DNA of 64,000 bases from Patescibacteria group bacterium (GTDB lineage Bacteria > Patescibacteriota > Minisyncoccia > Phycocordibacterales > BOKC01): contig JBBTWE010000001.1 in NCBI GenBank assembly GCA_038062955.1, forward strand, positions 182,304-246,303, written 5' to 3'. The translations under genes and the position numbers were made by a program. Below are positions 7,912 to 53,359 of this stretch, one piece after another. The notes under the pieces are model-generated. The model had not been told where the DNA came from, made no database searches, and saw only the letters and a list, made by a program, of their open reading frames with translations. Every line of letters begins with the position of its first letter. Position 1 is the stretch's first letter.

Positions 7912-7968
7912 TAACTTTTTAAAAACAAGTGCTAGCCATACTAACAAAAAAAGCCCTAATTAGTCAAC

Positions 7969-8053
7969 CCCGTAGTACCTACCTACCGGCAAGGCAAGGA
8001 TTTTGGCATAGCAACTTCGTTGCGGGAGCAACAATGCCAAAATTCACTACGGG
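7969..8053. mobile_element. MITE-like element copy 1 (85 bp; CCCGTAGT / ACTACGGG terminal inverted repeats; 6-bp target-site duplication GTCAAC at 7963-7968 and 8054-8059)
   Basis: inverted termini plus exact flanking direct repeat; the target-site duplication overlaps the -35-like TTGAC of the infA promoter; internal ccTaccggcaaggcaagg palindrome. Confidence 0.7.
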
Positions 8054-8086
8054 GTCAACCCAAATCCTGCGGGATCAAATTATATT

Positions 8087-20523: not shown

Positions 20524-20614
20524 ATAAATAGTCTGTAATGTAGAATAGAAAGGTTAAATGGTATTAAACCCTTTGATCGTCTACACGCTCGCTAACCGGA
20601 ATAAAGCAAAACCC

Positions 20615-20658
20615 CCGAACCGAAAGGAACGGGGGTTTTGCTTTTTATTTTGACTTTA
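20615..20658. terminator. bidirectional intrinsic terminator
   Basis: A-run, aaaacccccgaaccgaaaggaacgggggtttt, T-run. Confidence 0.75.
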
Positions 20659-20678
20659 TAACTTTTAACCTTATAACT

Positions 20679-24786: not shown

Positions 24787-25050
24787 TTACTCTTTTCGCT
24801 CGGCACCTTGTTCGACGAGCCAAGCCTCGATTCTCTTCGCATTTTCTGCTGAGAAGAATCCGCGGTAGTATCCAGGACCGCTACTCCCCGAAGTACCAGA
24901 GACTCTGAAGACGCCCTCCTTCAGTTGAAAACTGGTAAATCTGTTGACAAGTCCCCCATCTTCGTAGACGGGATAAGGAGGAGCTTCCTTTTGCTCTCCC
25001 CTTATGCTCACATAGACTCCGGGAATTGTTTCGAAAGTGACTTTTGGCAT
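24787..25050 (-). CDS. hypothetical protein (GC-rich island F ORFan, 87 aa from MPKVTF...)
   Basis: ribosome-binding site AAGGAGaacATG at the internal ATG; TTGACA-N17-TATACT promoter at about 25120-25150; gGGCGGCCATTGCTGGTCGCCC terminator. Confidence 0.5.
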   Translation of the reverse strand: MPKVTFETIPGVYVSIRGEQKEAPPYPVYEDGGLVNRFTSFQLKEGVFRVSGTSGSSGPGYYRGFFSAENAKRIEAWLVEQGAERKE

Positions 25051-25243
25051 GTTCTCCTTCTTTTCGGGTATGATTCGTGACAGCGATGTACTGGCCACGA
25101 TTCTCAAGAAAATAGTTTTTTCTATCGTCCTAAAAACCGCGGCCAGCTACAAAATCAGTGAGTTTTGAATGAACAATTTTCTGCGTCCAGTATACACCCA
25201 TTCGTGTATTTTGTCAAGGACAAATGCACGGCTAGAAATAAGC

Positions 25244-25838: not shown

Positions 25839-26789
25839 CTATCGTATTGGAACAGGAACAGCGTTTTTGAAAACAGGATAAAGATCAGAGTCTATTTTTC
25901 TCTCAAAACATTGATAACCGGACTCATGATTCCAAACATCACTTCCTGCTGGTTTGGATGGGTATGATGAGCTATAAACTGACACTTCTCCGCTAGTTAA
26001 ATTGTTGGTTTTGGTTAAATTAAATTCAGCGCAGAGTTTGAATGATTGTTCGCCAGATTTTTCATAGCCGTATGGTTTGTTGGTCTGAATGTCGAGAGGT
26101 ACGGTAAATCCGGAAATTGGATCTTGTAACTCGGTTAAAGTTTGTGGCACTACTCCTTTTTGTTGCCAATAATTTATTACTTGCCACTGAATGTTTTGCA
26201 AATCAGTAATTTTCTGATCGTCATATCGTGCTTTACGTTGACTTGCGGGAGAACCGACAACGCTAAATCCTAAAATAATTGAGCCCAAAACCAAAACGAC
26301 AGCAATAATTTTCCAGATATTTCTGCGACCACCTGCCAATCTTTCTTTGAGATCGTCCAACTGGTACATAAAGACACATCCAGCAATTACAAAGAATGCG
26401 ACAACTTTTAGGATGAAGCCTGTGGTCATTTCCCTGCCGTCTAAAAAGTAATAAATCAATGTAACCAAGTCCCCGGACAAAACAGCTCCAGCCACAAATA
26501 GAGTTATGTATATAAGCCATTTTCGAAGTGCATATTCTTTCTTTTCCGGTGTTGCGATATATCCTTTTTGAATGATATTGGATAAAACTAAAAATATCGG
26601 AAAGACAACGATAAGAGTGGCTACCTGGAGACTCATGGAAGATTGATCATATCCGTAGTAATACTGATTGATTTGTGGAAATGCGACGTTAATAATCCGA
26701 AATAAAAGATTGAGCAAAGCTACAACTCCGGTGTAAAGGAGAGCAACTTTGGCAATATGGAGAAAGAAATCTTTGGCAGACGTTTTCAT
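25839..26789 (-). CDS. hypothetical integral membrane protein
   Basis: multiple TM helices; the likely start is MKTSAKDF (the ORF track extends to 26930 through a GC-rich stretch). Confidence 0.5.
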   Translation of the reverse strand: MKTSAKDFFLHIAKVALLYTGVVALLNLLFRIINVAFPQINQYYYGYDQSSMSLQVATLIVVFPIFLVLSNIIQKGYIATPEKKEYALRKWLIYITLFVAGAVLSGDLVTLIYYFLDGREMTTGFILKVVAFFVIAGCVFMYQLDDLKERLAGGRRNIWKIIAVVLVLGSIILGFSVVGSPASQRKARYDDQKITDLQNIQWQVINYWQQKGVVPQTLTELQDPISGFTVPLDIQTNKPYGYEKSGEQSFKLCAEFNLTKTNNLTSGEVSVYSSSYPSKPAGSDVWNHESGYQCFERKIDSDLYPVFKNAVPVPIR

Positions 26790-26899
26790 ATTTTTAGAGC
26801 TTAAAATAATATTAATAGTGTAATTGTAACCCTTATATTTGTTTTGTCTATGAGAGTCTTGATTAAAAGATAACTTTTGATATATACTGTCGGCAGTGG

Positions 26900-27115
26900 T
26901 GTGGTGGAGTGCAAAGCGCAAACAGGCCATGAGTTAGCGCGTCCCCCAGAATTCCCTGCAGGGTTTCTGGCTTGGCGTGAATGTAGCGAGAAAACACATC
27001 AAGCAAAGTTCCCACGCTACGGGGAAACCCATGGATAAAATCCTTGGCGCGCGGTATCTTCATCACACCACCCTTCACACGTCCTCTTACGAGAGGCGTG
27101 TTTTTTTATACAATT
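26900..27115 (+). ncRNA. candidate small RNA or small-protein transcript (about 215 nt), GC-rich
   Basis: TTGATT-N16/17-TATATA promoter at about 26862-26895; structured GC-rich body (ccagaattccctgcagggtttctgg hairpin); hairpin plus T8 terminator at 27082-27115; only a 30-aa ORF that runs through the terminator. Confidence 0.35.
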
Positions 27116-27119
27116 TTTT

Positions 27120-28226
27120 TTAAATTTTAAACTCAATCACGTTGCCGTCTTTCACAATGTAGTCTTTCCCTTCCGTTCGGACCAATCCTTTTTCGCGGGC
27201 GTTTGCGTAACTGCCTGATTCTAGGAGTTTATCCCATTCAATAACTTCGGCTTTGATAAATTTTTCTTTGAAATCTGTGTGAATGGCCTGTCCTGCGACC
27301 GGGGCTGTTGAGTCGCGCAAAATTGTCCAAGCCCGAGTCTCATCTTCTCCGGTTGTAAAATATGTAATTAAATCTAAAAGTTTATATCCGCTTTTTATCA
27401 AATTATTCACTCCATCTTCTCCGGTCGCGCTCCCCGTTAGTTCTGTTCTAAATGTCTGTTTGTCAGCCGAATCAAGATCTTTTAATTCCTGCTCGATCCC
27501 CGCGTCTACAATTACGTAATTGGAGTTTGTGTCTTTCATGAAATTCATGAGTTTCTCCCATTTTTCGTCTTTAATTTCGTCCAAATTTTTTCCACCCGAT
27601 TTTTTATTCAAAACATACAGAAAAGGCTTCATGGTGAGAAGATGCAAGCTTTTTACTATATCTCTTTCTTCTTTTAAAATACTTGCGCTCGAAGCCAATT
27701 TTCCTTCTTTTAAGAACTTTTCAATTTTGAGGAGTAGAGCTTCCTCTAAAATTGCGTTTTTGTCCCCCCTTTTCACATCCCGAATAATATTATTCTTTCT
27801 TTTGGCAACTGTTTCAGAATCAGCAAGAATAAGTTCGAAATTGATAATCTCGATGTCTTTTATTGGATCAACTTTTCCATCAACATGAATGACTTTATCA
27901 TCCTCAAAAATACGAACGACTTCAGCGATCGCATCCACCTCCCTAATATTACTTAAAAATTTATTTCCCAATCCTTCCCCAGTCGAAGCACCCTTTACGA
28001 TTCCAGCAATATCCACAAATTCTACTGCCGCAGGAACAGTTTTTTTTGATTTGCTAAATTCTGACAATTTCCAAAGTCTCTCGTCTGGTACGGCCACAAC
28101 TCCCACCGATGGATCGATTGTGCAGAATGGGTAATTCTCGGCCGGAACCGATTTTTGGGTTAATGCATTAAAAAGCGTCGATTTACCAACATTCGGTAGT
28201 CCAACTATCCCAATACTTAAAGACAT
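27120..28226 (-). CDS. ychF: ribosome-binding ATPase YchF (Obg-like GTPase family)
   Basis: MSLSIGIVGLPNVGKSTLFNALT...; TGS domain at the C-terminus. Confidence 0.9.
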   Translation of the reverse strand: MSLSIGIVGLPNVGKSTLFNALTQKSVPAENYPFCTIDPSVGVVAVPDERLWKLSEFSKSKKTVPAAVEFVDIAGIVKGASTGEGLGNKFLSNIREVDAIAEVVRIFEDDKVIHVDGKVDPIKDIEIINFELILADSETVAKRKNNIIRDVKRGDKNAILEEALLLKIEKFLKEGKLASSASILKEERDIVKSLHLLTMKPFLYVLNKKSGGKNLDEIKDEKWEKLMNFMKDTNSNYVIVDAGIEQELKDLDSADKQTFRTELTGSATGEDGVNNLIKSGYKLLDLITYFTTGEDETRAWTILRDSTAPVAGQAIHTDFKEKFIKAEVIEWDKLLESGSYANAREKGLVRTEGKDYIVKDGNVIEFKI

Positions 28227-34937: not shown

Positions 34938-35054
34938 TCCACCTACCGTGGCGGGTGGTTTTCGATTTCGTAAACTCAATAACGAAAACCCTTTCGATCC
35001 CGCTACGGAGTGAAGCAGTTCACTCCTCCGGTTCCTAACTCACTGCGTTCGTTG

Positions 35055-35127
35055 TGGACCATAGCGGGATCGAACCGCTCACCTCGCACATGCCATGCGC
35101 GCGCTCTACCAAATGAGCTAATGGCCC
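35055..35127 (-). tRNA. tRNA-Ala (anticodon GGC)
   Basis: revcomp is GGGCCATTAGCTCATTTGGTAGAGCGCGCGCATGGCATGTGCGAGGTGAGCGGTTCGATCCCGCTATGGTCCA: cloverleaf with G3:U70, anticodon loop AUGGCAU, T-loop GGTTCGATCC; CCA is not encoded. Confidence 0.9.
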
Positions 35128-41026: not shown

Positions 41027-41055
41027 TGACAATAAACTAGATGTGTGTATAATAT
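41027..41055 (+). promoter_or_regulatory. near-consensus sigma70-type promoter TTGACA-N16-TATAAT with TGn
   Basis: cgcTTGACAataaactagatgtgTGtgTATAATatac. Confidence 0.6.
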
Positions 41056-41064
41056 ACAAGGATA

Positions 41065-41478
41065 CGTTCGGCGCCAAATCCTTAAATGGCGAACACATGT
41101 CACTACGGGGTACAGCGATATGTGAGGCCAGCGTAGTATGTTTTCTCTCCCCATCCGACATACCACAAACGGTAACGGAAGAAGAAAGAGAAATAAGTTC
41201 CAGGCCGTGTCTCCATCCTGGAACGAAGCAAAAAAGAGACAACAAAAAAGACAAATTCTGCTATGATCCCGGGAAAGTTCCCGTGCGATCGAAGGTTCTA
41301 GACGGTGAGAATCTGTTCGCGATCCCGGGTTAAATCCTGGGCGAACATAAGGCCAAGATGCCACAACCGAGCACCCTGAGGATTGGTCTCCTCGCGTCCC
41401 ATAGGCCGCGTACTGGGTGATGATACTTTGACCACGGGCCGGAGCAACGATTCAGTCGTTTGCTTCGGCCCTTTTTTA
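41065..41478 (+). ncRNA. promoter/terminator-bounded GC-rich transcription unit (about 410 nt): structured ncRNA candidate, or a 79-aa Cys-containing small protein without a ribosome-binding site
   Basis: near-consensus TTGACA-N16(TGtG)-TATAAT at 41027-41055; multiple perfect hairpins (gttccagg...cctggaac, gttcgc...gcgaac); terminator gggccgg...cggccc plus T6 at 41436-41478; no RNase P / tmRNA / SRP signatures. Confidence 0.4.
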
Positions 41479-44216: not shown

Positions 44217-44290
44217 TGGTGGACCTAGCGAGAATCGAACTCGCGCCTCTACAATGCGAATGTAGCATTTTACCACTGAACTATAGGCCC
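44217..44290 (-). tRNA. tRNA-Ala (anticodon CGC), CCA encoded
   Basis: revcomp is GGGCCTATAGTTCAGTGGTAAAATGCTACATTCGCATTGTAGAGGCGCGAGTTCGATTCTCGCTAGGTCCACCA; G3:U70; anticodon loop UUCGCAU. Confidence 0.85.
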
Positions 44291-53224: not shown

Positions 53225-53286
53225 TCTGTATGTTATTTATATACCAAAATATAACGAGAATTAATGACTACTTGTAAGTAAGTTTG

Positions 53287-53359
53287 TGGACCCTACCGGG
53301 ATCGAACCGGTCGCCTCCACATTGCAAATGTGGCGCTCTACCAGATGAGCTAAGGGCCC
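53287..53359 (-). tRNA. tRNA-Ala (anticodon UGC)
   Basis: revcomp is GGGCCCTTAGCTCATCTGGTAGAGCGCCACATTTGCAATGTGGAGGCGACCGGTTCGATCCCGGTAGGGTCCA; G3:U70; anticodon loop UUUGCAA. Confidence 0.9.

Follow-up and report, generated by a model that had tools for sequence, protein, structure and literature searches.

We asked what lies in the 330-bp gap (26790-27119) between ychF and a DUF5671 membrane-protein gene in the 64,000-nt stretch of Patescibacteria DNA analysed here (the window, to which coordinates refer unless a contig is named). A sequence-only reading of this DNA had proposed a stand-alone, GC-rich small RNA on the plus strand of this gap, with its neighbours on the other strand, and the ORF list and the gene caller agree that both bordering genes, ychF (stop at 27120) and the DUF5671 gene, are on the minus strand. 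It had also raised the possibility that the region is the translated 5' end of an ORF at 25839-26930, which turned out not to be the case. This mechanical ORF is overlong relative to the DUF5671 gene, which starts at ATG 26789 and is given by the gene caller as 316 aa; because of this start, a Pfam DUF5671 domain that begins at residue 7 of the 316-aa form, and homologues of 301-316 aa, the RNA region falls outside the DUF5671 coding part. The gap very probably holds a genuine, independently transcribed, non-coding structured RNA gene with a predicted transcript of about 190-215 nt: across four diverged homologues, promoter, terminator, length and fold are retained, compensatory changes occur in the fold, and no ORF is conserved. 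On this comparative evidence we would class it as an RNA family not described before, and one of an ordinary kind: a structured, stand-alone sRNA of bacteria.

The promoter that had been pointed out for this RNA, TTGATT followed by TATATA, is present on the plus strand at corrected coordinates 26859-26886 and has the form of a sigma-70 promoter with an extended -10. The -35 hexamer TTGATT, read from the sequence and by consensus scan, occupies 26859-26864, and the extended -10, TGaTATATA, occupies 26878-26886 (TG at 26878-26879, TATATA at 26881-26886), with a 16-nt spacer between the two hexamers; the consensus scan chose another register (TTGATT-18-TATACT, 26859-26888, 9/12 matches). In the relatives described below, the -35 reads TTGTTT (L095 and L102) or TTGATT (L101), always with a 16-nt spacer, and the extended -10 reads TGATATATT in L095 and TGTTATATT in L102 at an unchanged distance from the -35. 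The geometry common to the versions is thus a -35, a 16-nt spacer, TGn, TATAT(A/T) and 7-9 nt to the terminal helix of the RNA, P1, and transcription would start around 26892-26894, 2-5 nt ahead of this helix. Back to back with this promoter lies a divergent one for the DUF5671 gene (TAGACA-16-TACAAT, 26823-26850, minus strand; 10/12 matches in the consensus scan).

At the other end, the plus-strand intrinsic terminator spans 27076-27107, with a stem at 27076-27100 (inner stem CCTCT/AGAGG at 27083-27096) followed by T7 at 27101-27107. The hairpin of the terminator is therefore as had been described, but the T8 assigned to it is not: its tract is T7, and a T8 run lies apart from it, at 27114-27121, and overlaps the stop codon of ychF. 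The terminator is kept in L095 and L097 (longer stem, U8) and in L102 (U6), and both promoter and terminator stand at fixed distances from the helix in the homologues (window, L095 and L102; L097 is cut at a contig end). No plus-strand gene lies downstream, and the terminator runs into the convergent ychF stop codon, an arrangement that does not fit a riboswitch or other cis-regulatory leader. Between these signals the segment is GC-rich, as claimed, at 47-54% GC (54% for the 187-nt core) against a window average of 38.5%.

The window's YchF is identical to YchF on contigs from ENA ERZ1292632 and sister samples (Hainich groundwater well H43), and the nearest YchF matches in the one-genome-per-species GTDB set are only 71% identical. 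Among the first 100 related loci there was no homologue of the RNA, and 80 ychF loci from GTDB genomes gave none with nhmmer, blastn or a single-sequence covariance model (R1); GC bumps downstream of ychF in two of these loci (L006 and L008) proved to be small protein genes. At about 80% YchF identity, syntenic loci (L086-L094) share the same gene order (PGI, ROK, a small gene, [CAP], YchF, gap, DUF5671, LeuS, sigma factor) with gaps of 47-672 bp and unrelated content, and the resemblance of a short hairpin in L091 to P1 was unsupported by blastn or nhmmer. Homologues were found closer by. Members of the 90%-identity YchF cluster led to L095/L096 (identical to each other) and L097, and a DUF5671 homologue of 67% identity led to L102, which with the window makes four distinct versions, from different metagenomes and 205-217 nt long with the terminator included. 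A further locus, L101 (78% DUF5671 identity), ends at a contig edge inside the promoter.

The DUF5671 proteins at these loci form a small clade of five lineages with 65-78% mutual identity, next to which stands a large sister clade. The RNA is present in four of the five lineages (only its beginning is visible in L101). In every case its promoter and that of the DUF5671 gene point away from each other, back to back, while its other neighbour is not constant: the window has ychF there, L095 a 62-aa membrane ORF and L102 a 112-aa ORF. The fifth lineage (L098, L108 and L109, from three samples) has a YchF at least 90% identical and a 138-bp gap in which homology reaches up to the -35 region and no RNA follows; the DUF5671 promoter region is alignable in all relatives, this lineage included. 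In the large sister clade, a RelB/YafQ toxin-antitoxin pair sits at the position of the RNA. Because one lineage is without the RNA and the sister clade has other cargo in its place, we read the RNA as an accessory, dispensable gene of a small Paceibacteria clade, one sister lineage of which is without it, and the ychF-DUF5671 gap, judged from its contents, appears to behave as an insertion hotspot. Across L086-L109, the cargo of the gap is the RNA, RelB/YafQ (L103-L107), small ORFs (L091, L093 and L095), short promoter-plus-terminator units (L088 and L093) or nearly nothing (47 bp in L086).

Wider searches added no members. Exact 20-mers from the window sequence had no match in viral and metagenome contigs, a result that we ascribe to the chosen stretch, since it includes the variable base of the stem. 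A two-block pattern made from conserved blocks retrieved only the L097 contig and a chance match in a high-GC contig (L099), and the two-block pattern of P1 had no match in viral contigs; BLAST against phages and plasmids gave no match, and a covariance model built from the four sequences (R2) found no further members in 70 loci.

The 187-nt structured core (26893-27079, plus strand) rests on the minimum free energy fold, its z-score and the covariance-model matches to L095, L097 and L102. The plus strand folds at -85 kcal/mol with z = -4.65, and none of 200 shuffles was as good; the minus strand gives z = -3.10, and other versions of the RNA reach -6.03 and -5.04. In the window fold, the 5' end (26896-26912) pairs with 27058-27076, and this terminal helix encloses four hairpins, which agrees with the internal hairpins noticed by the sequence-only reading. 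Within it lies P1, an invariant 14-bp helix that joins the 5' end to the stretch just upstream of the terminator. Its 5' strand, GUGGUGUGGUGGAG (26896-26909), is identical at 14/14 positions in all four versions, at a time when the DNA of the flanking genes in the same lineages is 81-87% (ychF) and 70-76% (DUF5671) identical. On its 3' strand, CUUCAUCACACCAC (27058-27071), the only changes are C to U or the reverse; because they exchange G-C for G-U pairs, the pairing is preserved on the plus strand only. Over helix 1 as a whole, 11 pairs are invariant, four vary on one side and two on both, with 98.5% of cells paired. P1 is lengthened to roughly 22-25 bp by P2, whose 5' strand GCGC (26916-26919) pairs with 27049-27052 and lies within AAGCGCAAACA, a conserved block that is fixed at the top of the rod and reads AAGAGCAGACA in L102. 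The linker that leads to the terminator, UUCACACG, is likewise fixed.

The interior is of another kind. In hairpin A (26938-26979), the stem is wholly rewritten across lineages, with 12 of the 15 pairs of helices 4 and 5 changed on both sides and 97-100% of cells still paired, and the apical CUGCAG (26956-26961) is invariant; separate folds of each homologue agree on this hairpin. Hairpin B (26983-27020) has the stem GUAGCG/CGCUAC, which becomes GUAGCC/GGCUAC in L095 and L097 (helix 6), and a G-poor, pyrimidine-rich loop of 16-26 nt that is unalignable between versions. The least certain pairing of the model is that of 27021-27043, where GGGGAAACCC could be a GNRA hairpin C or a single-stranded G-run and is followed by a variable hairpin D. 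The last of these differs between L095 and L097, which are otherwise identical. Their RNAs (L095 3916-3975, L097 4764-4824), on contigs that share an identical YchF, depart from each other in a ~40-nt patch that covers hairpin D and the 3' strand of P2, with roughly half of its positions changed and one 1-nt indel, a difference that points to either a recombined patch or local hypervariability.

To judge the fold across versions, we used a structure-guided alignment of the four sequences, in which 96% of 198 pair cells are paired. Changes on both sides occur in 17 of the 57 pairs, and 500 column shuffles never reached that number of pairs, again over four sequences; when partner columns were slid by 1-3 positions, only 36-53% of cells were paired. 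A covariance model made from the window alone finds L095, L097 and L102 with 59, 47 and 40 bits (E = 4e-15 to 1.5e-9). These figures come from four sequences representing about three independent lineages, in an alignment that was fitted by the covariance model and leans toward it; a sequence-only MAFFT alignment misplaces hairpin A, cannot place the interior and is unusable for covariation. Single-sequence folds independently recover the same elements as the alignment. The comparison thus gives good but thin support for a conserved fold maintained by compensatory changes. The constraint on the molecule is unusual, in that a helix and a palindromic loop are invariant and everything between them is rewritten.

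No known family accounts for this RNA. Rfam 15 had no match at the region, either at the gathering score over the whole window or at E <= 10 over the region, and at E <= 10 nothing relevant was found on the homologous loci L097 and L102; E was multiplied by 4227 families in these scans, which could hide a very weak similarity. Among the papers listed by full-text literature searches, none dealt with sRNAs or 6S RNA in Patescibacteria. Very little is known about non-coding RNAs in these bacteria (the candidate phyla radiation), and the RNA described here provides a clean example with comparative support. Its reach is limited by its distribution: present in four lineages and missing from one sister lineage, it does not serve a core function.

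What the RNA might do is suggested by which parts are held constant. We tentatively favour, at somewhat less than even confidence, a trans-acting protein-binding or scaffold RNA that possibly dimerises through its palindromic loop. In the fold, a junction on the P1/P2 rod carries three to four hairpins whose sequences drift while their pairing is kept. Under the favoured scheme, the RNA would work in trans by binding proteins or as a scaffold, not by antisense pairing. Its invariant terminal helix would provide the recognition platform and would shield both ends from exonucleases, and the invariant palindromic CUGCAG loop would be a second contact, either for the partner or for loop-loop homodimerisation. 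Several points count against this proposal: no partner protein is encoded beside the RNA, whose second neighbour differs between genomes; the sequence invariance of the helix would also fit an alternative pairing role for one of its strands; and the scaffold and dimer mechanism is drawn from conservation patterns alone.

Precedents exist for such a pattern. Y RNAs and the bacterial YrlA, the partners of Ro60 and Rsr, have an invariant terminal stem formed from both ends and a variable hairpin interior, and the present RNA shares this pattern of conservation. It differs from them in being larger than typical Y RNAs, in having no Rfam match and in having no tRNA-like module that we could see, and an Rsr/TROVE gene was absent among its annotated neighbours. 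The RNA is also akin to the orphan GC-rich ncRNAs of AT-rich genomes (raiA, OLE and ROOL) as a GC-rich, structured intergenic island with conserved loops. Self-association has been reported for several of these orphan RNAs, and a palindromic loop could mediate the same here. In contrast to raiA, OLE and ROOL, with which it has no sequence or Rfam relation, the RNA is found in four lineages only, and it is far smaller than OLE or ROOL.

The rival that survives best, which we nonetheless consider unlikely, is a base-pairing sRNA of the Gram-positive C-rich-loop type (RsaE, RoxS, RNAIII), in which the loop of hairpin B would pair with the ribosome-binding regions of mRNAs and block initiation. 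The RNA has its own promoter and terminator, and in every version the large loop of hairpin B contains a motif like UCCC or CCUCC: the window has UUCCC, L095 has CUCCC/UUCCUC and L102 has AAAUCCUCCUUUA. Yet no part of the RNA is less conserved than this loop, and the seeds of sRNAs are normally their most conserved part. Moreover, most genes of the lineage are AU-rich upstream and without a Shine-Dalgarno sequence, the fold of L095 pairs the C-rich motif with GGAG inside the hairpin, and duplex energies with the starts of the DUF5671, response-regulator, ychF and leuS genes were no better than those of shuffled RNA (z of at least -1). Unpaired UCCC motifs that bind Shine-Dalgarno sequences are a known signature of Rsa sRNAs and RNAIII (PMC2790875). 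With these C-rich-loop sRNAs of Firmicutes (RsaE/RoxS, RNAIII; PMC2790875) the RNA has in common an Hfq-independent style, a promoter, a terminator and the loop motif; it departs from them in the placement of the motif in the least conserved part, in a host largely without Shine-Dalgarno sequences, and in being larger and closed by a long terminal helix.

We regard as rather improbable that the RNA is a divergent 6S-like RNA, a model in which the closing helix and the open junction would mimic an open promoter and sequester sigma-70 holoenzyme, and AAGCGCAAACA at the top of the helix would template pRNA. The general build invites the comparison: with 6S RNA (RF00013), the RNA shares a length of ~185 nt (~187 nt for the core), ends that pair in a long closing helix (roughly 22-25 bp), an open interior, a high GC content, a strong promoter of its own and a stand-alone position, as well as a conserved sequence block at the boundary of helix and junction, and no 6S RNA was detected in the window at the Rfam gathering score. 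The detailed architecture fits less well. Even at E <= 10 there was no Rfam match to 6S RNA in the window region, L097 or L102, and the consensus is a multi-branch junction, whereas 6S RNA is a rod in which two long helices flank one central bubble. The short apical stem varies in length, and hairpin A has only ~10 bp in L095; in the geometry of 6S RNA, an apical hairpin of ~10 bp is too short to mimic the upstream duplex. The RNA is also confined to one small clade with one loss, being missing at the locus in a lineage whose YchF is at least 90% identical and in all of the more distant relatives examined.

A related and more ambitious version of the scaffold and dimer reading is that the RNA represents a new class of RNA-only or RNA-protein assemblies of Patescibacteria, in which CUGCAG would drive homodimers and the terminal helix would dock on a conserved machine such as RNA polymerase. 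We think this a long shot; if it were true, the RNA would fill the place of 6S RNA, which Rfam did not detect in the window.

The gap could instead hold a DNA-level element, either a MITE-like insertion in the hotspot or what is left there of an accessory cassette, with P1 as its terminal inverted repeat. An inverted repeat of 11-14 bp at the termini, a GC content above that of the host genome, the presence/absence polymorphism among close relatives, and the RelB/YafQ module or small ORFs that occupy the gap in other lineages would all suit such an element. However, the 64-kb window contains only one copy, no further copy turned up across 559 kb of related loci, and no target-site duplication is visible. 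Substitutions keep the pairing of the RNA, where the G-U pairs would be A-C mismatches on the other strand, and promoter and terminator are held at conserved, fixed distances from the helix. We therefore consider a DNA element very unlikely, and that the gap codes for a small protein (the 30/48-aa or 53-aa plus-strand ORFs, the 71-aa minus-strand ORF or the 5' part of DUF5671) is almost certainly wrong: there are open frames on both strands and a G-run 6 nt before ATG 27031, but the versions have no frame in common, a 1-nt indel between L095 and L097 shifts the reading inside every candidate, L102 has no start codon for the frame matching the 30-aa ORF, Pfam matches none of the small ORFs, the gene caller left the gap empty, and the DUF5671 protein starts at 26789. 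The RNA thus has no conserved reading frame. As had been remarked, the 30-aa ORF (ATG 27031 to stop 27123) reads through the terminator. The 71-aa ORF had a single match among 1.84 billion representative proteins (E = 3.4e-4), a repeat-summed chance match to PD40.

The sequence-only reading had further singled out an octamer, GCTACGGGG/ACTACGGGG, as a possible recombination or target motif shared with other elements of the window. The CTACGGGG octamer does occur four times in the window, against 0.39 expected. Two of the four copies form a single inverted repeat, one in each arm (7968/8047), and the four copies are three independent sites, picked after the fact. Its structural role differs at each site. 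Within the family, stem B has GCUAC as its 3' strand, paired with GUAGC and followed by the G-run (L102 reads GCUACAGGGGG); hairpin B thus contains CUAC, the first four bases of the CTACGGGG octamer, and the G-run of the octamer is in hairpin C. In a second putative RNA at 41.1 kb, the octamer letters begin the 5' strand of a different stem (ACUACG...CGUAGU). Among the fetched loci of the same and the closest lineages, the sole copy of the octamer is inside the RNA itself, with no enrichment outside it. The idea of a shared motif is not supported, and in the RNA the GCTACGGGG octamer is simply the 3' strand of one stem plus the G-run.

Several other features of the window were observed in passing. 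The inverted repeat just mentioned, ACCCCGTAGT ... ACTACGGGGT at 7963-8060, surrounds ~70 bp with an inner hairpin and is single-copy in the window; it is the element that had earlier been called MITE-like. Rfam reported a match to ohsC_RNA, an enterobacterial type I antitoxin sRNA, at 20603-20669 (minus strand; 55 bits against a gathering score of 50), a surprising match for a Patescibacterium and perhaps a false positive. Three tRNA-Ala genes (minus strand; 35054-35127, 44217-44290 and 53286-53359), with anticodons GGC, CGC and UGC, lie ~9 kb apart, and the Rfam gathering scan detected only two of the three. At 41027-41478 (plus strand), a strong TTGACA-N17-TATAAT promoter precedes ~420 nt of GC-rich sequence that contains a T-arm-like GGGUUAAAUCCUGGG, no convincing ORF and a clean terminator (41437-41478), with no Rfam match at the gathering score or at E <= 10. 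This region looks like a second, larger RNA of no Rfam family.

Finally, at the gene starts of L081 and L095 (the 24.5-33 kb region in window terms), most genes had AU-rich upstream regions without a recognisable Shine-Dalgarno sequence, a scarcity that bears on models of translational control in this lineage. A 106-aa ORF at 24787-25107 (minus strand) has an internal ATG (MPKVTF...) preceded by an AGGAG Shine-Dalgarno sequence. The 675-bp stretch around it, between the response-regulator gene and leuS, is left empty by the public gene caller, and the ORF is probably an uncalled small protein gene.
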